A stretch of DNA of 64,000 bases from Dehalococcoidia bacterium (GTDB taxonomy: Bacteria > Chloroflexota > Dehalococcoidia > UBA2979): contig JBAYVN010000002.1 of assembly GCA_041674525.1 (NCBI GenBank), positions 9,841-73,840 of the forward strand. Reading direction: 5' to 3'. A program made the translations under genes and the position numbers. Of the stretch, positions 30,197 through 40,925 are shown in pieces. Numbering within the stretch: the stretch's first letter is position 1; the number at the start of each line of letters is the position of its first letter. The notes under the pieces were generated by a model, which was given only the letters and a program-made list of their open reading frames with translations, had not been told where the DNA came from and ran no database searches.

Positions 30197-30376
30197 ATGA
30201 CCGCTTTGACCTCTCTCATGGGCATGCTCTGGACCACGACTCACGACGAGGACGGCCAGACGATGGCCGAGTACGGGCTGATCCTGGCTGGCGTGGCCGT
30301 GATCGTCATGGCCGCGGTGTGGGCCCTCGGTGGCGCCATCAACGCGACGTTCGAGAGCATCGTGGGCCAGTTCTAA
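30197..30376 (+). CDS. flp: Flp-family type IVb pilin
   Basis: 59 aa. The leader ends ..EDG|QTMAEYGLILAGVAVIV (Flp G/xxxxEYG motif). GAGGAG RBS. Confidence 0.85.
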   Translation: MTALTSLMGMLWTTTHDEDGQTMAEYGLILAGVAVIVMAAVWALGGAINATFESIVGQF

Positions 30377-30394
30377 GCCCATCGCTGCGCGGGA

Positions 30395-30436
30395 GCCTGC
30401 AGAGCGCCCATTTTGCCGCCCGGGCGCTCTGCAGGC
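30395..30436 (+). terminator. Hairpin (15-bp stem, 12-nt loop) between the two flp genes
   Basis: gcctgcagagcgccc ... gggcgctctgcaggc. Typical of an attenuator after a major pilin gene. Confidence 0.5.
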
Positions 30437-30501
30437 TCAGCTCAAGCAGCTTCAGCGATACCGAACACGCCGATCAGGCACGTCTCCGGAAGGGATCCGC
30501 G

Positions 30502-30723
30502 ATGGCTCAGGTTGAACTTCCTGGAAGCGCACAGACCCCGTCGTCCACCTCGGCCGAACGAGGCGTCGACGGGCGGTGGCCGTCGGGCAGCCGTGAAGAC
30601 GGCCAGACGATGGCGGAGTACGGGCTGATCCTGGCGGGCGTGTTCGTGCTGGTCGCGGCAACCGTGCTCGCATTTGGCCCGGCACTGAGTGGCCTGTTCG
30701 AGCAGGTCATCGCGGAGTTCTAG
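30502..30723 (+). CDS. flp: Flp-family type IVb pilin, second copy with long leader
   Basis: 73 aa. Leader ..SREDG|QTMAEYGLILAGVFVLV, with the identical cleavage motif. Confidence 0.85.
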   Translation: MAQVELPGSAQTPSSTSAERGVDGRWPSGSREDGQTMAEYGLILAGVFVLVAATVLAFGPALSGLFEQVIAEF

Positions 30724-30760
30724 ATCCACCCAGCTGGCCTGAAGACGACGGGAGCGCGCT

Positions 30761-31180
30761 ATGCACCTTCCGAACGCCACCATCAAACCCGCCAACGAAC
30801 GGGGACAGGCCGTGCTGGAACTCGCTCTCATCATGCCCGTTCTCGTGATGCTCGTCTTTGGCGCGCTCGAGGTGGGGCGGCTGCTGAACGCATGGGTCGT
30901 GGTCACCGAAGCCTCGCGCGAGGGTGCCCGTGTCGCCGCAGCGAAGTGCACCTGGCAGGCCGGGTGCGGCACGCTCGTGCAGACGGGCGTCACCAACTCA
31001 CTGGCGGGGCTGGACGTCGCGCGATCGAGCTGGTCGATGACGACCGGTCCGTACGTCGCGGGCGACGCGGTCACGGTGAACGTCGATTACCGATCACAAC
31101 TGGTCGTTCCGCTGATCAGTTCGATCTTCGGCTCCGACGAGGTCACCGTGCACAGCCAGACGAGCATGAGGCTTGAATAA
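30761..31180 (+). CDS. tadE: TadE-like pseudopilin
   Basis: ERGQAVLELALIMPVLVMLVFGALEVGRLL N-terminal TadE/G signature (PF07811-like). Confidence 0.8.
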   Translation: MHLPNATIKPANERGQAVLELALIMPVLVMLVFGALEVGRLLNAWVVVTEASREGARVAAAKCTWQAGCGTLVQTGVTNSLAGLDVARSSWSMTTGPYVAGDAVTVNVDYRSQLVVPLISSIFGSDEVTVHSQTSMRLE

Positions 31181-32220
31181 TGCCTACCCTGCTCTTCCGC
31201 CACGTACTCTCCCTGTCGGCCTCGTGGCTCCGGCGCCTGCGCGTGGAGTCGGGAGCCGCCGCGGTCCTGTTTGCCGCGACGCTGCTCCCGATCGTCGGCA
31301 TCTCGTCGCTCAGCGTGGACGTGGCGAACGTCTTCCTCGACCGGCGCGAGCAGCAGAACGCGGTGGATGCCGCGTCGCTGGCCGCCGCCTCCTACCTGCC
31401 CACCACCAGCACCAGCGTCCTGAACAGCGCGACCAGCGCGGCGATCGAATTCGCCGCGGCGAACGGGGTCACGATCTCCGCCTCGGACGTCACGTACAGC
31501 ACGTCGAGCCAGCGATTCGACGTGGTCACCGTGCGTAGCGAGCGCACCGTTCCCTTCTTCTTCGCCGGAGCCATGGGCATCACCAGCGGCGCGGTGAGCA
31601 GCCGCGGCGCCTCGCAGCTCGGCTCCCTGGTGGGCATGACCGGCGTCATGCCGTGGGGGTTGCACCAGCAGACCTTCAACTTCTCAGCCCCGTACTGCCT
31701 GAAGATGGGCTCGAACGGCAACGGCGCGGACTGCAACCAGCAGAGCAGCGCCGGCGACTTCGGCCCGATCGACATCGACAACAACGGCAGCGCGTCCGGC
31801 AACCTGTACCAGGGCCTGATCATCACCGGCTCGCAGACCGAGGTGCTGGTCGGCCAGGTCAAGGGCACCGTCAGCGGCAACAAGCAGGGCCCCACGGAGT
31901 CCGCGCTTGGGTGCAGCAACAACAGCAACGGCCGCCTGACCGGCAACACGCAGACCTTCACGGACGTGCTGCGGGCCAACGCCGACGGCGTGACCTACAC
32001 CGTGCTGGACTGGAGCAGCCCGCGGCTGGTGATCATCCCGGTGATCCAGACGGTCGGAAACAACCTGATCCAGATCAAGGGACTCGTCGTCTTCTTCATC
32101 ACGGAATGCGGCCAGAACGGGTCGGTCATCGGCCAGTTCATCGACACCGTGGTGCCCGGCGGCAGGTGGGGCGTGTACCAGCCCGGGTTCGGTACGCGGG
32201 CGATCCGGATGATCGAGTGA
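31180..32220 (+). CDS. tadG: TadG-like pilus assembly protein (Tad N-domain protein)
   Basis: ESGAAAVLFAATLLPIVGISSLSVDVANVF N-terminus, then a Ser/Thr/Gly/Asn-rich beta region. Confidence 0.7.
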   Translation: MPTLLFRHVLSLSASWLRRLRVESGAAAVLFAATLLPIVGISSLSVDVANVFLDRREQQNAVDAASLAAASYLPTTSTSVLNSATSAAIEFAAANGVTISASDVTYSTSSQRFDVVTVRSERTVPFFFAGAMGITSGAVSSRGASQLGSLVGMTGVMPWGLHQQTFNFSAPYCLKMGSNGNGADCNQQSSAGDFGPIDIDNNGSASGNLYQGLIITGSQTEVLVGQVKGTVSGNKQGPTESALGCSNNSNGRLTGNTQTFTDVLRANADGVTYTVLDWSSPRLVIIPVIQTVGNNLIQIKGLVVFFITECGQNGSVIGQFIDTVVPGGRWGVYQPGFGTRAIRMIE

Positions 32221-32239
32221 TGCAGACGAGGGACGAGGC

Positions 32240-32953
32240 ATGAGAACACGATCACTGCTGCTATCGCTGATCTTCGCCGTGGTGGGCGGGGGGCTCACGC
32301 TCCTCGTCCTTCGCGGTCACACCGTGAGCCAGGCGCCACAGGCCGACGCGACCGAGCGCGTGGTAGTGCCCGTGCGCCCGATCGCCGTGGGCGACAAGCT
32401 CGGCGTCGCTGATGTGCGCACCGCAGTGCTCATGAAGGGAACGGCGCCCGAGGATTCTCTCCGGGATCCGGCCGAGGTGCAGGGGCAGTTCGCGCAGGTG
32501 CCGCTGGTCGTCGGGCAGCCGCTCCGCCGCGCGGACATGAGCAGCGCCGCGCCGGGCAGCCGCCTCGCCGCGATCATCCCGGACGGTCACATTGCGATCG
32601 CGGTCGGCGTGAGCGACGTGATCAGCACTGGAGGCTTCGTCGCCCCGGGTGACCACGTGGATGTCCTCGGCGTCGTGACGAAGGAGGCGCAGGACAGCGC
32701 GCAGGTGGTCCTGCAGGACGTCCTGGTGCTCGCGGTGTCCAACGCCCTGAACGGCACCGCCGACCCTGCCGCCTCCACCCGCAAGCCCGCGGCCGGCGGC
32801 GAGAACCCGAACGGCGTGCACTCCACGATCACCCTCGCCGTGACGACCCAGGAGGCGCAGCGCCTGGTGCAGGTTGACGAGCTGGGCAAGCTGCGATTCG
32901 CGCTCCGGCGTCGCATCGACGGTGGTACCGGTCCCGCAGCGGCGTCCAGGTAG
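32240..32953 (+). CDS. cpaB: Flp pilus assembly protein CpaB (RcpC) with SAF domain
   Basis: N-terminal TM, then a SAF-like segment (VVPVRPIAVGDKLGVADV) and an RcpC-like C-terminus. Confidence 0.75.
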   Translation: MRTRSLLLSLIFAVVGGGLTLLVLRGHTVSQAPQADATERVVVPVRPIAVGDKLGVADVRTAVLMKGTAPEDSLRDPAEVQGQFAQVPLVVGQPLRRADMSSAAPGSRLAAIIPDGHIAIAVGVSDVISTGGFVAPGDHVDVLGVVTKEAQDSAQVVLQDVLVLAVSNALNGTADPAASTRKPAAGGENPNGVHSTITLAVTTQEAQRLVQVDELGKLRFALRRRIDGGTGPAAASR

Positions 32954-32976
32954 CGAACGTAGCCAGGGGGGCATGC

Positions 32977-34194
32977 ATGGCACGAAACCCGTCACTCCTG
33001 CTCGTCGATGCGAACCCGGATCATCGCGCGCTGCTCCGGCAGCTCGTGTCCGGGCTGCCCTACGCCGTGGCCGCGGAGGCCAACTACGGCGTGGAGGCAG
33101 CGCGGCTCGCGGGCGAGCTCCAGCCCGAGATCGTCCTCGTGCACATCGAGGAGCCGCTCGCACTCGCGTTCCGCACTCTGGAAGTCGTGCAGCAGGCGGC
33201 CCCGCGTGCCGTGCCGGTGGTCATCTCGCGCCGCAATGACGGGGAGACCGCGCGCAAGGCGATGCTCTTCGGGGCGCGCGGCTTCGTCCTGAGCCCGCCC
33301 ACGGCCAACTCGATCGACGAGGTGCTCGCGCTGGCGAAGGCGCGGTACGACTCGACGATCCAGTCGGCGCTCGACGGGCTGCAGCTGGACGATGACGGCG
33401 CGATCCGCACCTCGGCGCTCGCCGGCGGCACGGTGATCACGGTCTTCGGGCCGAAGGGGGGCATCGGCAAGACGACGCTCGCCACCAACCTGGCGATCTC
33501 GATCCAGCGCCGGACCGAGGCGCGCGTCGCGATCGTGGATGTCGACGCGGACTTCGGCGACGTCGCCGTGATCATGGGCATCGAGCCGGAGCGCACCATG
33601 CGCGACCTGCTGGACGCGTACCGCGACGGCGAGCTGCCTCCGCTCCAGGACTTCATGGCGCTGCACAGCTCCGGCGTGCACGTCCTCGGCACCCGCCATG
33701 CGGAACGCATCGGGACGATGCCGGACCCGGATGCGATCGCCACGCTGATCCGCCAGTTGGTGCGCACGTATGACTTCGTGATCGTGGACACCCCCGGCGC
33801 GTTCGTGCCGCAGGTGGCCGCCGCCCTGGACGAGGCGACCACCGTGCTCCTCGTCACCAGCGCGGACCTCTCGAGCATCAAGGACGCACGCCTCGCGATC
33901 TCGATGCTGCGCGGGTCCGGATACCAGGGCGATCGCCTCAAGCTGGTCGTCAACCACGCCACCAACGCGAACTCCGTGTCCGATGCGGACGTGGCGCGCA
34001 CGGTGGGGTACGACGTCTTCTGGACGCTGCCGCACGACCGCGCGGTGCCGCAGTCCACGCAGCACGGCGAGCCCATCGTGATCTCGAACCCGCGCTCGCG
34101 CATGGCGCAGCGGGTCGACGCGCTGGCAACGTACCTGAGCGGCACCGGCGAGGTGCCCGAGCCCGAGCCGCGGAAGCGGCGCTTCTTCTGGTAG
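32977..34194 (+). CDS. cpaE: CpaE/TadZ: receiver-like N-domain + ParA/MinD-type ATPase
   Basis: Pseudo-receiver N-terminus and a deviant Walker A (GPKGGIGKTT). Confidence 0.85.
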   Translation: MARNPSLLLVDANPDHRALLRQLVSGLPYAVAAEANYGVEAARLAGELQPEIVLVHIEEPLALAFRTLEVVQQAAPRAVPVVISRRNDGETARKAMLFGARGFVLSPPTANSIDEVLALAKARYDSTIQSALDGLQLDDDGAIRTSALAGGTVITVFGPKGGIGKTTLATNLAISIQRRTEARVAIVDVDADFGDVAVIMGIEPERTMRDLLDAYRDGELPPLQDFMALHSSGVHVLGTRHAERIGTMPDPDAIATLIRQLVRTYDFVIVDTPGAFVPQVAAALDEATTVLLVTSADLSSIKDARLAISMLRGSGYQGDRLKLVVNHATNANSVSDADVARTVGYDVFWTLPHDRAVPQSTQHGEPIVISNPRSRMAQRVDALATYLSGTGEVPEPEPRKRRFFW

Positions 34195-34208
34195 GACTGG
34201 AGGCATCA

Positions 34209-35672
34209 GTGGCCACGGAAATGCTGCGTCACCGCTTCCGATCGCCCGGGAGCGAGCCGCCCGCCCCGGCGCCGGGCACCCAGGGCACCCCGGGCACCCC
34301 GGGCACGTCCGCGCTGGAAGCGGCGGTCAACCTCGCCGCGGCCGGGGACATCTCGCCGATCGGCGAGGGGCCGCTGATGCGCTGGGCGGCCGAGCCGCCG
34401 CCCCTGCCGCCCTCGCTCGTGCGGCTGAAGGAGACCGTGCACGAGCAGCTGATCGAGGAGGTCGACCCCGGGTCGCTGGACCCGGAGGGCGCTCGCCGGC
34501 TGGTGCGCGAGGTGGCCACGGAGCTCCTCGGCCAGCAGGACGTGCGCGGCGTCGCCGAGTACCGCGATCGCCTGGTCAACGAGATCGCGGATGAGGTGCT
34601 GGGGCTCGGCATCCTGGAGCCGCTGCTCCGCGACGACTCCGTCACCGAGATCATGGTGAACGCCCCCGACGGCATCTTCGTCGAGGTGGGCGGCCGGCTG
34701 TTCCGGAGCACGTACGCATTCCGCGATGAGGCTCACCTGATGCGCATCATCGAGCGCATCGTGGCGCCGATCGGCCGGCACGTGGACGAGAGCTCGCCCA
34801 TGGCGGATGCGCGCCTCCCCGACGGATCGCGCGTCAACATCGTCGTCCCGCCGGCCTCGCCGCACGGCGCGAAGCTGACGCTCCGCAAGTTCGCGCGGCA
34901 CCGCATGCGGGCCGAGGACCTGGTCCGGCTGAGGGCGCTCTCCAGCGACGCCACGCTGTTCCTGCAGGGCGCCGTCCGAGCGCGACTCAACATCCTCGTC
35001 TCCGGAGGCACCGGCAGCGGCAAGACCACGCTGCTGAACGTGCTGTCCTCGTTCATCAGCGATGGAGAGCGCATCGTCACGATCGAGGATCCCCTGGAGC
35101 TCCAGCTGCAGCAGATCCACGTCGTCGCGCTCGAGGCGAAACCGCCGGGGATCGAGGGATCGCGGCAGATCACGCAGCGCGACCTGGTGCGAAACGCGCT
35201 GCGCATGCGCCCCGACCGGATCATCATCGGCGAGGTCCGCGGTGCCGAGGCGTTCGACATGCTGCAGGCGATGAACACCGGCCACGAGGGATCGATCAGC
35301 ACGGTGCACGCCAACACCCCCCGCGATGCCCTGAGCCGCGTGGAGAACATGGTGATGATGGCGGGCTTCGACCTCCCGGATCGCGCGATTCGGGAGCAGG
35401 TCGCCTCGGCGATCCACCTGCTGGTGCAGGTCGCAAGGATGTCCGATGGCAGCCGCAAGGTGACGCACATCACCGAGGTCGCGGGGATGGAGGGACAGGC
35501 GATCACGATGCAGGACCTGTTCCTGTTCCAGACGACAGGCCGGGACGACCACGGCCGGGTGCAGGGAGAGCTCCAGGCCACCGGGCTGCAGCCGCACTTC
35601 CTGGGCCGGTTCGCGGAGCGCGGCATCCACCTCCCGCAGGACATCTTCCACAGCACGAGGTGGTCGGAATGA
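34209..35672 (+). CDS. cpaF: CpaF/TadA secretion ATPase (type II/IV secretion NTPase)
   Basis: Walker A (GGTGSGKTT), Asp/His boxes (TIEDPLEL ... TGHEGS). Confidence 0.9.
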   Translation: MATEMLRHRFRSPGSEPPAPAPGTQGTPGTPGTSALEAAVNLAAAGDISPIGEGPLMRWAAEPPPLPPSLVRLKETVHEQLIEEVDPGSLDPEGARRLVREVATELLGQQDVRGVAEYRDRLVNEIADEVLGLGILEPLLRDDSVTEIMVNAPDGIFVEVGGRLFRSTYAFRDEAHLMRIIERIVAPIGRHVDESSPMADARLPDGSRVNIVVPPASPHGAKLTLRKFARHRMRAEDLVRLRALSSDATLFLQGAVRARLNILVSGGTGSGKTTLLNVLSSFISDGERIVTIEDPLELQLQQIHVVALEAKPPGIEGSRQITQRDLVRNALRMRPDRIIIGEVRGAEAFDMLQAMNTGHEGSISTVHANTPRDALSRVENMVMMAGFDLPDRAIREQVASAIHLLVQVARMSDGSRKVTHITEVAGMEGQAITMQDLFLFQTTGRDDHGRVQGELQATGLQPHFLGRFAERGIHLPQDIFHSTRWSE

Positions 35673-36619
35673 TGCTGGCGGTGATCGCCGCTCTGACCGT
35701 GGGCGCCGCCGGGTTCTTCGGCGCGCTCAGCATCCTCGCGCCCGCGGAGCGCAGGCGAACGACCGCCGCCGCGCGCCTCACATCGATCGCCGATCACGAG
35801 AGCGTCTTCGAGCCCGGCTTCGAGGCCCTCGGACGGCGGCTCGGGCCGAGCAACCTGGACCGCCAGCTCGTGCGCTTCCCGCTGGGATCGATGATCAAGC
35901 GGGATCTCCAGCGCTCAGGGCTTGCCTGGCAGGTCCGCGACTACATCGGCGTGATGCTGGTGCTGGCAGTGGTCGGCGGTTCCGTGGCCTTCCTGTTCTC
36001 GGCGACCGCGTTCCCGCTCGGCGGGCTCGCGGGCGCACTGGTGCCGGTGCTCATCGTCAAGCGCATCGCCTCCAAGCGGGCGTCACGCCTGAACGGCCAG
36101 GTCGTGGACCTCGTGGAGCTGCTCGCCTCGTCGCTCCGATCGGGCTTCAGCTTCGTACAGAGCCTGGAGCTGGCGCTGCGCGAGCAGCCCGAACCCATGG
36201 CCGGCGAGCTCCGGCAGGTGATGCGCGAGACCAGCCTCGGCATGAGCACCGACGAGGCCCTCCAGCGCCTCGCGGACCGCACCGGGGACGAGGATCTCGG
36301 GCTCGTGCTGACGGCTGTGCTCATCCAGCGCCGCGTCGGCGGGAACCTCGCGGAAGTGCTCGGCGGGATCGTGGAGATGATCCGCGACCGTGCGCGGGTC
36401 CGCGGCGAGATCCACACCCTGACCGCGCAGGCCCGCATGTCCTCGTGGATCGTGGGATCGCTGCCCGTGGTGCTCGCCATCGTGATGTCGATGATGCAGA
36501 AGGGCTACATGGCGGCGCTGTACACCGAGCCGGTGGGCCGGCTCATGCTGATCGCGGCCGTCGTCCTCGAGGTGATCGGACTGTACCTCGTGCGGCGGAT
36601 CGCGTTCGTCGACTACTAG
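35669..36619 (+). CDS. tadB: TadB (T2SS-F family inner membrane platform protein)
   Basis: T2SSF domain pattern. ATGA overlap with cpaF. Confidence 0.85.
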   Translation: MMLAVIAALTVGAAGFFGALSILAPAERRRTTAAARLTSIADHESVFEPGFEALGRRLGPSNLDRQLVRFPLGSMIKRDLQRSGLAWQVRDYIGVMLVLAVVGGSVAFLFSATAFPLGGLAGALVPVLIVKRIASKRASRLNGQVVDLVELLASSLRSGFSFVQSLELALREQPEPMAGELRQVMRETSLGMSTDEALQRLADRTGDEDLGLVLTAVLIQRRVGGNLAEVLGGIVEMIRDRARVRGEIHTLTAQARMSSWIVGSLPVVLAIVMSMMQKGYMAALYTEPVGRLMLIAAVVLEVIGLYLVRRIAFVDY

Positions 36620-36659
36620 CCGAGAACGGACAGAGCGGACAGAGCGGACGGAGCCAGCG

Positions 36660-37568
36660 GTGTTGCTCACAGTATTCGCAGCGCTTTCGGTAGCGGCGGC
36701 GGCCTTCTTCGGCGGCCGGGCCGTGCTCGTGCACGAGTCCGGTCGAAGCGCCGCGCGCCTGCAGGAGATCGCGAGCTCCGGCGAGCCGTTCGACCCGGAT
36801 GCCGACCAGGGCACGGTCTGGGATCGCCTCGTCAGGCCATTACTGCGCGGCGCCGCGGAGCGGTTCAGCGCCCTGCTCCCGACGCGCCTGGCGCAGTACT
36901 TCGAGGGACAGCTGATCGTGGCCGGCGATCCGGTCACCCCGCATGCCTACGCGCTCTTCGTGCTCCTGCTGCCGGCTGCGCTGGCGCTCGGGCCGCTGGT
37001 CGTCGTGTTGCGCACTCACAACCTGTCGCTGGCGACGTTCGGAGTGCTCGCCGCGTGCCTGACGCTGGGCGTCGCCGCACCGCCGATCTGGCTGAAGGGG
37101 CGGATCGCCCGGCGGCAGATGGCGCTGGTGCGCAGCCTCCCGGACGCGGTCGACCTCGTCGTCGTGTCGGTGGAGGCCGGTCTCAGCCTGGAGGGCGCGC
37201 TCGGGCGCGTGGCGGAAGGGCAGGACGGCCCGCTGGTGCAAGAGCTCCGGCGTGCATTGACCGAGATGAGCCTCGGCATGGGCCGGCGGCGGGCGCTCCA
37301 GGGCCTCGTCGATCGCACGCAGCTCCCGTCGCTCCGCTCGCTGGTGAGTGCGATCGTGCAGGCGGAGATGACGGGCATGGGCATTGCCCAGGTCCTGCGC
37401 GCGCAGTCGCTGCACCTGCGGACGCAGCGCCGCCAGCGCGCCGAGGAGCAAGCGATGAAGGCGCCGCTCAAGATGCTCTTCCCGCTCGTCTTCTTCATCT
37501 TCCCCTCGCTCTTCGTGGTGGTGCTGGGCCCCGCGGTGTTCTCCCTGCTCCGGGCGCTGGGCCAGTAG
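36660..37568 (+). CDS. tadC: TadC (T2SS-F family inner membrane platform protein)
   Basis: T2SSF domain pattern. GTG start. Confidence 0.85.
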   Translation: MLLTVFAALSVAAAAFFGGRAVLVHESGRSAARLQEIASSGEPFDPDADQGTVWDRLVRPLLRGAAERFSALLPTRLAQYFEGQLIVAGDPVTPHAYALFVLLLPAALALGPLVVVLRTHNLSLATFGVLAACLTLGVAAPPIWLKGRIARRQMALVRSLPDAVDLVVVSVEAGLSLEGALGRVAEGQDGPLVQELRRALTEMSLGMGRRRALQGLVDRTQLPSLRSLVSAIVQAEMTGMGIAQVLRAQSLHLRTQRRQRAEEQAMKAPLKMLFPLVFFIFPSLFVVVLGPAVFSLLRALGQ

Positions 37569-37577
37569 GAGCGTGAC

Positions 37578-37994
37578 ATGACGAGCGAGCAGCCCCGTCC
37601 GCTGGCGGCAGGCGAACCTCGACGCGACACGCGCGCCGTGCTGCGATGCTCGCGCACGGACGTGCTGGTGGTGACGCGGCTCCGCGTCGCGGGCAACATG
37701 CTGTCGCGCCTGAAGGGCCTCCTGGGCAGCGCAGAGCCCGCGCCGGGTGACGGCCTGTGGATCGTGCCGTGCTCCGGCGTGCACACGGTGGGGATGCGCT
37801 ATCCGATCGACGTCGTGTTCCTCGATCGAGCGGGCCGCATCGTCGCCACGCGTCCGGAGCTCCGGCCGCTGCGCGCCGTGCCCTGGGTGCGACATGCGCA
37901 CAGCGCTCTGGAGCTGCGGCAGGGAGCGATCGCCCGCTGCGATCTGCGAACCGGCGACGTGCTCGTCGTCGACCCCGGCGGGACCGCGGGGTGA
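37578..37994 (+). CDS. DUF192 (COG1430) domain protein embedded in the Tad operon
   Basis: ..WIVPCSGVHTVGMRYPIDVVFLD.. matches the DUF192 core. 9 nt after tadC. Confidence 0.7.
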   Translation: MTSEQPRPLAAGEPRRDTRAVLRCSRTDVLVVTRLRVAGNMLSRLKGLLGSAEPAPGDGLWIVPCSGVHTVGMRYPIDVVFLDRAGRIVATRPELRPLRAVPWVRHAHSALELRQGAIARCDLRTGDVLVVDPGGTAG

Positions 37995-38052
37995 TCGAGG
38001 TAATCGGGATCGAGGTGGTTGTGATCGAGGTGGTTGTGATCGAGGCGATCGG
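37993..38052. repeat. Four tandem copies of a 15-bp unit (GATCGAGGTGGTTGT)
   Basis: gatcgaggtaatcgg, gatcgaggtggttgt, gatcgaggtggttgt, gatcgaggcgatcgg. Fills the gap between the DUF192 stop and the cpaA start. Confidence 0.85.
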
Positions 38053-38055
38053 GTG

Positions 38056-38598
38056 ATCCGCGTCATCGAGCCGCGCACGGCGATCGCCGAGACCAGCGCG
38101 CATACGCCCGCGTGGCGCAGCAATGTGTCGCTGGGCGTGCTCGCCGGGGTCACCGCCGGCGCTGCCGTCGCGTTCATGCTCCCCGCGGCGCGATGGCTGC
38201 CCCTGCTCGTGATCTTCGCCCTCGCCGCGGGGATCGACTGGCGGACGCGGCGCATCCCCAACTGGCTGACGGCGGGCGGCGGGGCGTTCGCCCTGCTCAC
38301 GGCCGGCGGCGCGCTCGGCGCATCGCTCCTCGGCGCCGCGGTGGCGCTCGGGGCGGGGGTGGTCTTCGTCGTGCTGGCCCGCGGCGCGTTCGGAATGGGC
38401 GACGTGAAGCTCCTGGCGGTGGCGGGGGCGGCGACGGGCGCGGCAGCGTTGCCCGGCGTGCTCCTGGTGATGTCTATCGCCGGCGGTGTCCTGGCGTTGT
38501 GGGCCATGGCGACCGGTCGAGGTCCGGGCCCGCGCACCATCGCTTACGGTCCGGCGATCGCCGTGGGCGCGGCCGCCGCGATCTGGCTCGAACGCTAG
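38056..38598 (+). CDS. cpaA: Prepilin peptidase (A24 family; CpaA/TadV)
   Basis: Multi-TM with catalytic Asp motifs (..GMGDVKLLAVAG..). GTG start. Confidence 0.8.
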   Translation: MRVIEPRTAIAETSAHTPAWRSNVSLGVLAGVTAGAAVAFMLPAARWLPLLVIFALAAGIDWRTRRIPNWLTAGGGAFALLTAGGALGASLLGAAVALGAGVVFVVLARGAFGMGDVKLLAVAGAATGAAALPGVLLVMSIAGGVLALWAMATGRGPGPRTIAYGPAIAVGAAAAIWLER

Positions 38599-38631: not shown

Positions 38632-38961
38632 GTGATCGCGGTCATGAGCGGCGACTGGGTGGTCGCCGAGATCTCCGGGACACGGCAGTTCCGGCGCATG
38701 CTCCGCGCCGCGATGCGGCCGGAGGACCTCATCTTCGACGCGGACGACGGGCTGTGGAGGATCCGCGGCACCGCATGGGGCGCCGCCTGCGCGGTGTTCT
38801 GGAGCTTCCAGATGTCGGTCGAGATGTTCCAGGCGCCCGATCACGGGGGCGATGGCCATGCGACCGCCGCGCGCACGCTCCCCGATGACGCGATCCGGCG
38901 TGCGCGGCGCCTGTCCGCCGCGATCGCGCGGGATCGCCTGGATTTCCCGATCGAGCGCTGA
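38632..38961 (+). CDS. Hypothetical small protein at the 3' end of the Tad operon
   Basis: 109-aa ORF with no recognisable motif. Start is uncertain (GTG 38632 or ATG 38644). Confidence 0.35.
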   Translation: MIAVMSGDWVVAEISGTRQFRRMLRAAMRPEDLIFDADDGLWRIRGTAWGAACAVFWSFQMSVEMFQAPDHGGDGHATAARTLPDDAIRRARRLSAAIARDRLDFPIER

Positions 38962-38999: not shown

Positions 39000-40925
39000 C
39001 TACGCCTCGCCAGGCGCCGCTGCGACTTCACTCGCGCCGAACCGCAGCGTGTGCGCCCCGATGCGCATGGCCTCGCCCGGGGCGAGGATCGTCCACTCGG
39101 CGGTGCCGTCCGAGCGCGACGCCGGATCGCTCGTGAGACGCTGCACCCGCAGGTTGCCGTCCGGCGCGATCGTGACGCGGGCATGACGTGGCGCGATCTG
39201 CGGCCCGGTGACGACGATGTCACACGACGGCTCGCTCCCCAGCACCAGCCCCTCACCCACCGGGTGGCTCTCCGGGTCGCCCTGTGGCCCCTCCACGGTG
39301 ATCGCGAGTGCGCTGCCGGGCGTCCAGAGATTCACGCGATCGCCGATCATCCGGACGCCGCGCGGCTGCAGCTCCCCGACCCCGGGCGTTGCGACTCGAG
39401 GCGGCCGCCGCCTCAGCGTCTGCCACCCGACCGTGGCGATCGCGGCGGCCACCAGCGCCGCAACGAGCGCGATGATCGCGAGCGGGTTCACCCCCGCCGA
39501 CACGCCGGCGCTCTCCGTGCGGATCACCGCGCCGCTCGCATCGAGCAGCGCCAGCGTCAGGCCGCCGGACGGGGGATCCTGCATGCGGAGCTCCGGCGCG
39601 CTTCCCCGCGCGAGCTCGCGCCCGTCGCCGGTCACCACGATCGTCGCGGCGCGGCCCTGTACACGGCCGCTCACCACGAGGGTCCTCGGCGGGCCGTTCT
39701 CAACGCGGGACGACAGCGTGGAATCGAGCTGCGGAACGTCGATCGACAGCGTCTCGGTCGCGGCGGTCCGGCCGTCGACCATCGCGGTGACGGTCACCAC
39801 GGTCACGCCCGGCGGGAACGCCCACGGGTCGATGCTGATGCTGCGATCACGCCCCCACGGCACGCTGGTGCCGCTCAGCGATGCGGTCAGCTGCAGCGTG
39901 TCCGGGCGCGCCGGGCCATCGAGCGTGATCACGATCGGACCATCAGGCCGGGCCGACGGGATCGCGCGCGGCTTCAGCAGGCCGTCGTTCGTGACATCGA
40001 ACGACAGCCCGGCAGTCTCGACGCCACCGGCGACGGAGACGCGCACGGAGACCTCGTGCGATCCGTTCGCGAGCACGGGGATCGAGGCGTCCACCAGGAA
40101 CAGCGTGTGCAGGCGATCACCGAGCGCCGTGAGCACGCCGCCCAGTGCCTGGACGTTCGCCACCGCCTGGTAGGTGCCGCCGGTCGCCATCGCCAGCTCG
40201 GAGAGATAGGCGGCGTCCGGATCGGCGCCCAGCCCGAACGCGAAGATCCGCGCGCCTGCCCTGCGCGCGGCATCGAGGCTTTGCGAGCGCGTGACCTTCG
40301 AGACCCCGCCCACCTCCTCGCCCTTGCGCAGCGGCGCATTCGAGAGCACCACCAGCACGTGCCGTCCCGGCGATGCCGGTCCGAGGGCGTTCGCACCGAG
40401 CGCCACGGCGTCGTAGAGTCCGGCATTGCCACCGGCCGCGATGTTCGTGATCCCCGTGCGGAGGCGCGTGCGATCGGTGGAGAGCGGCACGACGACCTTC
40501 GTGCTGTCCGCGAAGGTGATCAGCCCGACCTGGTCCGCGGGACCCAGGCGGTCGACCAGCGCGCGCGCGGCGTCCTTCGCCGCGATGAGTGGCGCGCCCC
40601 GCATGCTGTCGCTGGCGTCGACGGCGATCAGCACCGAGGCGGCGGGGGGCACCTGCCGGGAGACCGCGGGCGCCGGGACCTCACGACCGTCGATGGATAC
40701 CGCGAGCTGGGTGGCATCGATGGCGCTCCCCAGCGGACCGAAGAGCGAGATCAGCAGGTGGCCATCCACGCGGTAGGAGACCTCCGAGATCCCCAGCGCC
40801 CCGGGCGGGCGCTGCGCTCGTCCGGACTGCGGGACGAGCGCCCACGACACGGCGATGCTGACGAGTAGCGCGAAGAGCAACGACCGTCGCCCGCGAGGCA
40901 GGCTGATACGCCAGTGGAGCCACAT
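39000..40925 (-). CDS. Signal peptide - vWA domain - beta-rich extracellular region - TM - C-terminal FHA domain protein
   Basis: 641 aa. N-terminal signal (LLFALLVSIAVSWA). vWA MIDAS-like pattern (VLIAVDASDSM ... ITFADS ... VVLSNAP). TM near residue 470 (LAIIALVAALVAAAIATV). C-terminal FHA-like motifs (..GSEPSCDIVV..APRHARV..LTSD..GT..LAPGEAMRIGAHTLRFG). Confidence 0.7.
   Translation of the reverse strand: MWLHWRISLPRGRRSLLFALLVSIAVSWALVPQSGRAQRPPGALGISEVSYRVDGHLLISLFGPLGSAIDATQLAVSIDGREVPAPAVSRQVPPAASVLIAVDASDSMRGAPLIAAKDAARALVDRLGPADQVGLITFADSTKVVVPLSTDRTRLRTGITNIAAGGNAGLYDAVALGANALGPASPGRHVLVVLSNAPLRKGEEVGGVSKVTRSQSLDAARRAGARIFAFGLGADPDAAYLSELAMATGGTYQAVANVQALGGVLTALGDRLHTLFLVDASIPVLANGSHEVSVRVSVAGGVETAGLSFDVTNDGLLKPRAIPSARPDGPIVITLDGPARPDTLQLTASLSGTSVPWGRDRSISIDPWAFPPGVTVVTVTAMVDGRTAATETLSIDVPQLDSTLSSRVENGPPRTLVVSGRVQGRAATIVVTGDGRELARGSAPELRMQDPPSGGLTLALLDASGAVIRTESAGVSAGVNPLAIIALVAALVAAAIATVGWQTLRRRPPRVATPGVGELQPRGVRMIGDRVNLWTPGSALAITVEGPQGDPESHPVGEGLVLGSEPSCDIVVTGPQIAPRHARVTIAPDGNLRVQRLTSDPASRSDGTAEWTILAPGEAMRIGAHTLRFGASEVAAAPGEA

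Follow-up and report, generated by a model that had tools for sequence, protein, structure and literature searches.

A pilus operon of a Dehalococcoidia bacterium raises the question of why a gene for a DUF192 (UPF0127) protein, which is not a recognized component of Tad machines, lies among the genes for pilus assembly. The operon is located at positions 30197-38598 on the + strand of a 64,000-nucleotide (nt) stretch of contig JBAYVN010000002.1 (from here on, the window) and has the gene content of a monoderm-type Tad (type IVc) pilus system. Here, we report that the association of DUF192 with Tad loci is broad and essentially undescribed and that DUF192 is very probably a true functional component of Tad machines and not a passenger. 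Three genes at the end of the operon are central to this question:

36660-37568, + strand: tadC, platform protein of 302 amino acids (aa); T2SSF, 69.8 bits
37578-37994, + strand: gene for the DUF192/UPF0127 protein of 138 aa; 54.5 bits, gathering cutoff 27
38053-38598 (approximate), + strand: cpaA/tadV, prepilin peptidase of ~181 aa; Peptidase_A24, 58.1 bits

The DUF192 gene starts 9 nt past the tadC stop codon and is tightly coupled on this upstream side only; 58 nt separate it from cpaA. An earlier note on this DNA had described the gene as translationally embedded between tadC and the peptidase gene; this holds for its position inside the operon and for the lack of a recognized role in Tad systems, with tight coupling limited to the tadC side.

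To follow DUF192 through other genomes, we aligned 41 homologs, scanned one genome per species with the resulting profile, and ran Tad protein queries against the 80 best-scoring loci. A locus counted as Tad linked if two or more Tad gene families lay within 10 kb of DUF192. Based on this criterion, 67 of the 80 loci of the closest DUF192 relatives are Tad linked (43 of 45 in Acidobacteriota and 24 of 35 in the other groups), while a random gene would lie this near a Tad locus in ~1% of cases, a rough estimate from locus and genome sizes that was not computed. The linked loci represent ~15 phylum- or class-level groups, including Bdellovibrionota, Myxococcota, Gemmatimonadota, Desulfobacterota, Bacillota, Actinomycetota, Chloroflexota, and Beta- and Gammaproteobacteria, and lineages such as Geobacteraceae, Thermodesulfobacteriota, Gaiellaceae, four Chloroflexota lineages, Burkholderiaceae, Lysobacteraceae, and Thiotrichaceae. 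The DUF192 domain starts no more than 900 nt after tadC in 41 of the 51 DUF192-anchored loci that include tadC. Five of nine independent look-ups with precomputed Pfam annotation were Tad embedded, and in all three annotated plasmid records inspected (of 15 matching), DUF192 is beside Tad genes or a prepilin peptidase gene. It lies inside Tad clusters on plasmids of Streptomyces albidoflavus and Moraxella bovis annotated with the Prokaryotic Genome Annotation Pipeline (PGAP) and directly after the prepilin peptidase gene on an Alkaliphilus plasmid.

DUF192 is often paired with tadC even where other tad genes lie elsewhere. It directly follows tadC in both Dehalococcoidia genomes retrieved (loci L061 and L079). 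The window and L098 have DUF192 next to cpaA; most diderm loci have the peptidase gene at the opposite end of the operon, with DUF192 remaining with tadC. In Bdellovibrionota, an isolated tadC-DUF192 pair lies apart from tadB and cpaF (L010, 8987-10318; L050, 9081-10360), and this matches the separate tadC locus of Bdellovibrio bacteriovorus described in a 2026 preprint, in which DUF192 is not mentioned.

For the converse test, we used 49 metagenomic loci of TadC relatives, 46 of which had enough downstream DNA. DUF192 was directly after tadC in 15 of these 46 loci and anywhere in the fetched flanks in 17, and it is, therefore, a frequent accessory gene and not a universal core gene. Absence of DUF192 from orthologous Tad loci, which the earlier note had named as the finding that would overturn its reading, was not what we observed: the gene follows tadC in those 15 loci as well as in the two Dehalococcoidia genomes, and it is fused to the peptidase gene in the most similar loci.

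Thirteen of the 80 loci are not Tad linked. In 5 of these 13, plus L003 and L004, DUF192 is beside an MshEN-T2SSE ATPase gene; Elusimicrobia-type loci with DUF192 and this ATPase are L003, L004, L015, L024, L030, L036, and L045. In L003 and L004, the two are part of a methylmalonyl-CoA mutase gene cluster with a GAF-HD_5 protein and with no pilin or platform genes nearby.

Domain fusions provide a second line of evidence. An exhaustive DUF192 profile search of representative clusters (50% identity) gave 26,081 clusters at E ≤ 1e-3 and, for the close subfamily, 1,093 at E ≤ 1e-30. In long members, an N-terminal DUF192 domain is joined to Peptidase_A24 (P0242), PAS-PAS-GAF-HD_5 (P0213), TPR (P0170), or a PEMT/ICMT membrane methyltransferase (P0217). 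P0242 shares 59% identity with the window DUF192, and its peptidase half is 52% identical to the window CpaA. Because there are seven distinct DUF192::A24 clusters (mutual identity 42-69%), we consider this fusion evolutionarily maintained and not a sequencing error. The corresponding loci lack a secretin and have the order flp-tadE-cpaB-cpaE(REC)-cpaF-tadB-tadC-[DUF192::A24], i.e., the window architecture with the final two genes joined. The locus most similar to that of the window encodes DUF192 and the prepilin peptidase as a single polypeptide.

In 16 Acidobacteria loci, a DUF192-PilZ fusion with intact RxxxR (RKAPR) and DxSxxG (DISxxG) motifs is encoded after tadC. Loci with this fusion include L017, L018, L020, L022, L026, L028, L034, L035, L037, and L038, and further L063, L076, L077, L084, and L088 (alignment A2). 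Acidobacteria have a second, stand-alone DUF192 copy after the secretin gene; it is followed by a GT87 gene or is itself fused to GT87, and GT2 and Flp genes are near. The window protein consists of the DUF192 domain only, and PilZ is found only in the fused acidobacterial paralogues.

The spacer between DUF192 and cpaA in the window is filled by a repeat, the exact unit of which is found nowhere else in the window:

37993-38053, no strand assigned: 15-bp tandem repeat, consensus GATCGAGGTGATCGG, 4.1 copies; Tandem Repeats Finder score 66

A Shine-Dalgarno-like GAGG core recurs in every unit; the period is a multiple of 3, and the cpaA frame is open through the repeat. This frame is open from 37714, overlapping the 3' end of DUF192, and candidate starts for cpaA are GTG at 38053, GTG at 38125, and ATG at 38176. 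Both aspartate motifs of the peptidase are readable in the translation (GIDWRTRRIPN and GMGDVKLL). A +1 shift at GGG-TGA (37989-37994), which could reflect programmed frameshifting or an assembly indel, would join DUF192 and CpaA into one protein resembling the natural fusions P0242 and P0268, and we considered whether a single gene had been split by an assembly error. We kept two genes because the nearest relatives, P0002 and P0003, are stand-alone in length and because cpaA has its own GAGG-GTG start.

The protein itself is a member of PF02643 with a beta-rich fold. Its AlphaFold model is confident, with a predicted local distance difference test (pLDDT) score of 88, and matches only two DUF192 crystal structures of unknown function and distant uncharacterized proteins. 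The DUF192 profile finds the same two structures, 3pjy (Sinorhizobium meliloti R01717; E = 4.5e-9) and 3m7a (Novosphingobium Saro_0823; E = 2.3e-8), at a sequence identity of only 18-19%, and in NCBIfam the protein matches only a "hypothetical protein" model, and that weakly. The depositors called 3pjy a "hypothetical signal peptide protein," whereas the Tad-linked subfamily has no signal peptide and a motif of its own, GLWIxPCxxVHTxGMxFPIDVVFLD. Because none of 109 strong DUF192 matches has a hydrophobic N-terminal segment, the Tad-linked subfamily is predicted to be cytoplasmic, and on the same grounds we ruled out the periplasmic location that the COG name ("membrane protein") and the title of 3pjy would imply. 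A cytoplasmic DUF192 fits the N-terminal placement of the domain on polytopic membrane enzymes and on cytoplasmic signaling proteins. In the stand-alone subfamily, R44, H69, D78, and E112 are invariant and C65 is conserved. We set aside a catalytic Cys-His-Asp-Glu site (C65, H69, D78, and E112): the PilZ-fused paralogues have lost Cys, His, and Glu, which makes a shared catalytic site unlikely.

What could such a protein do in a Tad machine? In these systems, prepilins insert in the membrane and are cleaved by a CpaA-type peptidase (here at G|QTMAEYG); polymerization of the pilins takes place on the TadB/TadC platform, driven by the CpaF hexamer, and TadE/TadG prime the fiber. CpaB forms an extracytoplasmic ring, CpaE/TadZ positions the machine, and a secretin is not needed without an outer membrane. 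In the window, Flp1 and Flp2 would accordingly enter the membrane, be cut by CpaA, and be polymerized by the CpaF-driven TadB/TadC platform, and DUF192 would act at the cytoplasmic face of this inner-membrane assembly. It would be physically coupled to CpaA in the window lineage, is genetically coupled to TadC across phyla, and would link the processing of prepilins, the enzymes that modify pilins (A24 peptidase, GT87, PEMT/ICMT), and proteins of cyclic di-GMP (c-di-GMP) signaling (PilZ, HD-GYP) to the TadB/TadC-CpaF motor. We, therefore, tentatively propose that DUF192 may be a cytoplasmic docking or adaptor module that ties partner activities to this motor, with CpaA as the most likely partner in the window, because one such module fits the pairing with tadC, the adjacency to an orphan T2SSE gene in Elusimicrobia, and all types of fusion. 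Somewhat more speculative is the generalization that the subfamily could be a widespread coupling module that docks on TadC/CpaF and tethers a peptidase, pilin-modifying enzymes, or c-di-GMP signaling domains. For the locus as a whole, we consider it probable, on balance, that this is a monoderm Tad operon with DUF192 as an accessory adaptor of the inner-membrane machinery.

Several observations weigh against this reading. The functional support amounts to guilt by association in genome comparisons. The fold resembles structures of unknown function only, Cys, His, and Glu are not retained throughout the family, and a common DUF192 binding surface is hypothetical. The partner is ambiguous as well: the fusions to membrane enzymes suggest a role in pilin handling, while the PilZ and HD-GYP fusions and the MshEN-T2SSE neighbors in Elusimicrobia point to the motor or to signaling. 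Moreover, DUF192 is not universal, with only 17 of 46 TadC-relative loci having one; some members of the subfamily, among them L001, L007, and L145, are not linked to Tad genes; and the descriptions consulted for the Caulobacter, Aggregatibacter, and Pseudomonas model systems mention no DUF192.

The fusions to membrane enzymes would also suit a domain that handles prepilins, i.e., one that binds Flp prepilins and pseudopilins by their cytoplasmic leader or N terminus and presents them to the peptidase and to modifying enzymes. Such a domain would act without docking on the motor and would take the topological place of the N-terminal methyltransferase domain of PilD-type peptidases. Peptidase_A24, GT87, and PEMT/ICMT are all polytopic membrane enzymes with pilins as possible substrates, DUF192 is next to cpaA in both the window and L098 and next to a prepilin peptidase gene on the Alkaliphilus plasmid, and the secretin-proximal copy in Acidobacteria is followed by GT87, GT2, and Flp genes. 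A PMT_2 glycosyltransferase is encoded beside DUF192 in L144, and the exceptionally long cytoplasmic leader of Flp2 in the window (see below) would be in line with such a role. We nevertheless consider prepilin handling, the main rival, unlikely, given that it leaves unexplained the fusions to PilZ and PAS-GAF-HD-GYP and the Elusimicrobia loci, which have an MshEN-T2SSE ATPase as the neighbor and no pilin or platform genes near, and that in most diderm loci the peptidase gene is at the far end of the operon from tadC and DUF192. The signaling proteins that it fails to explain could in turn indicate a sensor or regulatory input domain that responds to a small molecule or second messenger and tunes Tad activity without being a structural adaptor. 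DUF192 is N-terminal in DUF192-PAS-PAS-GAF-HD_5 (P0213), is fused to canonical PilZ domains, and in Elusimicrobia forms a triad with the c-di-GMP-binding MshEN ATPase and a GAF-HD_5 protein; the invariance of four residues in the stand-alone subfamily also speaks for this role. However, the fold resembles no ligand-binding family, the PilZ-fused paralogues do not retain the invariant residues, and fusion to a peptidase or glycosyltransferase is unusual for a sensor domain; this possibility appears improbable to us.

The explanation that would remove DUF192 from the machine altogether is that it is an unrelated passenger, present in Tad loci only through shared ancestry or because entire clusters were transferred horizontally. 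Horizontal movement of Tad loci is established (PMC12786226), and about two-thirds of the TadC-relative loci lack DUF192. Yet, the linkage outlasts rearrangement, with DUF192 found after tadC, after the secretin gene, divergent from flp, and in an isolated tadC-DUF192 pair; it spans monoderms and diderms as well as chromosomes and plasmids; and at least six different in-frame fusions join DUF192 to pilus- or c-di-GMP-related domains. A passenger is, in our assessment, highly improbable.

The remaining genes of the operon, upstream of tadC, are as follows:

30197-30376, + strand: flp1, likely major Flp prepilin, 59 aa; Flp_Fap, 40.5 bits, cutoff 32.2
30502-30723, + strand: flp2, second Flp-like prepilin, 73 aa; Flp_Fap, 23 bits, under the cutoff
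30761-31180, + strand: tadE-type pseudopilin gene, 139 aa; Pfam TadE, 54.2 bits
31180-32220, + strand: gene for a tadG-like minor pilin or tip protein, 346 aa; PF13400 Tad, 38.1 bits
32240-32953, + strand: cpaB/rcpC, 237 aa; RcpC, 87.8 bits, and SAF, 34 bits; TIGR03177, 148 bits, cutoff 71
32977-34194, + strand: cpaE/tadZ, 405 aa; ParA, 52 bits, AAA_31, 45.5 bits, and Response_reg, 28.8 bits; also a CbiA match
34209-35672, + strand: cpaF/tadA motor ATPase gene, 487 aa; T2SSE, 221.8 bits
35660-36619, + strand: tadB, platform protein, 319 aa; T2SSF, 66.1 bits; 13-nt overlap with cpaF

All 11 genes from 30197 to 38598 are on the + strand and were confirmed with Pfam, with flp2 alone scoring under the cutoff; the window has a G+C content of ~70%. 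The ATG of the tadG-like gene overlaps the stop codon of tadE, and intergenic spacing ranges from −13 to +40 nt except between flp1 and flp2 (125 nt) and between DUF192 and cpaA. We read the locus as a single operon because the genes are tightly spaced. A promoter scan, which is uninformative for Chloroflexota, detected no sigma-70-like site, and terminator-like matches were inside genes. Two further tandem repeats of 9 bp occur in the operon: AGAGCGGAC (3.6 copies, 36623-36654) within the 40-nt tadB-tadC spacer and CCGGGCACC (3.9 copies, 34272-34306), which encodes a PGT-rich low-complexity stretch at the N terminus of CpaF.

The operon encodes a Flp prepilin with the G/XXXXEY motif, the TadA/CpaF ATPase with TadB and TadC, TadZ/CpaE, RcpC/CpaB, TadE/TadG pseudopilins, and a TadV/CpaA-type A24 peptidase that lacks a methyltransferase domain, Peptidase_A24 being its sole domain. 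The statement in the earlier note that the Tad/Flp locus is complete is, thus, borne out by searches of the translated open reading frames (ORFs) with Pfam and NCBIfam profile hidden Markov models, which recovered all components. The gene order is also as the note gave it; the label "Caulobacter-style" is less informative, since cpaB-cpaE-cpaF-tadB-tadC is common to nearly all Tad loci that we have seen. For CpaF, the top NCBIfam model is TIGR03819 (TadA family) with 318 bits, under the equivalog cutoff of 373. CpaE/TadZ has an atypical N-terminal receiver domain followed by a MinD/ParA ATPase domain. The usual phospho-acceptor site reads LVHIEE, with His replacing Asp, and a His at this position would fit the atypical receiver domain expected of TadZ.

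The two Flp pilins differ mainly in their leaders. Both carry the G|QTMAEY processing motif, the mature N terminus of Flp2 is identical to that of Flp1 (QTMAEYGLILAGV), and the mature parts are nearly identical. The leader of Flp1, MTALTSLMGMLWTTTHDEDG, is typically amphipathic and ends before QTMAEYG; a Shine-Dalgarno sequence (GAGGAG) 7 nt upstream of the ATG at 30197 gives a leader of 20 aa, while alternative in-frame ATGs give 13 or 11 aa. For flp2, there is no in-frame ATG, GTG, or TTG between 30502 and the codons for G|QTMAEYG, and the leader is, therefore, at least 34 aa long; it is hydrophilic. Among 103 Flp ORFs of the fetched loci, the shortest possible leader has a median length of 12 aa, a 90th percentile of 21 aa, and a maximum of 34 aa, Flp2 having the longest. 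Both leaders had been described as unusually long; this applies to Flp2, at the extreme of the distribution, and not to Flp1, which with 11-20 aa is in the normal range. The long spacer between the two genes contains a further element:

30393-30438, + strand: stem-loop between flp1 and flp2 with a perfect 17-bp stem

By RNA folding, this hairpin has a free energy of −49.9 kcal/mol (z = −4.6), and 0 of 200 shuffled sequences fold equally well; no T-run follows the stem. The hairpin is probably an intra-operon attenuator or mRNA stabilizer after the major pilin gene and would, in that case, probably set the ratio of major pilin to downstream transcript.

We did not find a secretin in the 64-kb window using phmmer with two secretins, nor in its six frames using a 47-sequence profile without filtering (best E = 3.3). 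Inside the operon, no unassigned ORF is left; CpaD itself was not directly searched for. These results, together with the origin of the window from a Dehalococcoidia metagenome-assembled genome (MAG), agree with the earlier proposal that the locus lacks a secretin and is consistent with a monoderm envelope, and a secretin-less Tad locus is expected because the genome is from Dehalococcoidia. Loci with a secretin show the association of DUF192 with Tad genes just as much as loci without one, and DUF192 is, therefore, not a monoderm adaptation. We note that a MAG labeled Chloroflexota carries a secretin gene (L081, 1-1332), as do the metagenomic loci L097, L100, L102, and L110, whose TadC proteins are 38-50% identical to that of the window. 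This suggests that secretin presence varies among close TadC relatives or that some bins are mis-assigned.

Downstream of cpaA, three ORFs flank the operon:

38632-38961, + strand: ORF of 109 aa directly after cpaA, with high G+C content at third codon positions
39000-40925, - strand: convergent gene for a VWA and FHA membrane protein; VWA, 53 bits, FHA, 23 bits, and Yop-YscD_cpl, 27 bits
41786-43270, - strand: gene for an AAA+ ATPase of unknown role, 494 aa; weak Mg_chelatase and AAA_5 matches

The 109-aa ORF matched nothing in Pfam and lacked homologs in all fetched loci. The VWA-FHA protein combines an extracytoplasmic VWA domain with an FHA domain at the C terminus, and in the Dehalococcoidia locus L079 (1256-3331) a homolog is encoded immediately upstream of flp. 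In L113, L117, L118, L120, L124, L125, and L131, the TadB ORF is ~650-700 aa long and matches the VWA-FHA protein of the window; we read these ORFs as putative FHA-TadB fusions. Pigmentiphaga has an FHA-T2SSE fusion. The VWA-FHA protein is, thus, possibly associated with Tad systems, a tentative assignment. Homologs of the AAA+ ATPase are encoded directly after DUF192 in L021 (10396-11772, 331 bits) and near DUF192 in L059 (14078-15490, 287 bits), in Gemmatimonas and Thermodesulfobacteriota loci, and we tentatively link this ATPase to the Tad-linked DUF192.

Apart from DUF192, this is an ordinary, complete Tad locus of an already known type, and secretin-less monoderm operons are well known. 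Monoderm Tad/Flp loci, such as tad2003 of Bifidobacterium breve, flp of Mycobacterium tuberculosis, and those on Cutibacterium plasmids, have no secretin or pilotin. The window shares with them the Flp pilins, TadE/TadG, TadZ, TadA, TadB, TadC, and the methyltransferase-less A24 peptidase; it differs in retaining cpaB/rcpC, in having the peptidase gene last, in the 34-aa hydrophilic leader of Flp2, and in the DUF192 gene between tadC and the peptidase gene. With the cpa locus of Caulobacter crescentus and the tad locus of Aggregatibacter, it shares the core order cpaB-(secretin)-cpaE-cpaF-tadB-tadC and the G/XXXXEY motif, whereas these two have a secretin (CpaC/RcpA) and a lipoprotein (CpaD/RcpB/TadD), and the window is without a secretin. 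Small cytoplasmic modules that act on a motor or peptidase have precedents in the PilZ/FimX-type regulators of type IVa pilus ATPases and in the N-terminal domain of PilD; the analogy with DUF192 is functional only, with no relationship in sequence or fold.

In the literature searchable without a subscription, we found no function for DUF192, COG1430, UPF0127, or PF02643, and a placement in tad operons only in PMC12786226 (December 2025). That study reports DUF192 in the tad operons of a few Bacillota, including that of Bulleidia extructa PP_925, without assigning it a role. It describes neither the linkage across phyla nor the pairing with tadC, and none of the fusions to the peptidase, PilZ, HD-GYP, GT87, or PEMT.

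DUF192 is a large orphan family with two solved structures, and the link to Tad loci together with the fusions gives it a first concrete and testable functional context. Culturable carriers, i.e., Moraxella bovis, Streptomyces with its plasmids, and Pigmentiphaga, make the hypothesis testable, and Bdellovibrionota carry the tadC-DUF192 pair. The link also suggests that a machine important in adhesion, biofilms, predation, and host colonization has an accessory part not yet accounted for. If DUF192 is a coupling module, pilus assembly in single- and double-membrane bacteria would have a physical connection to pilin processing and to second-messenger control.

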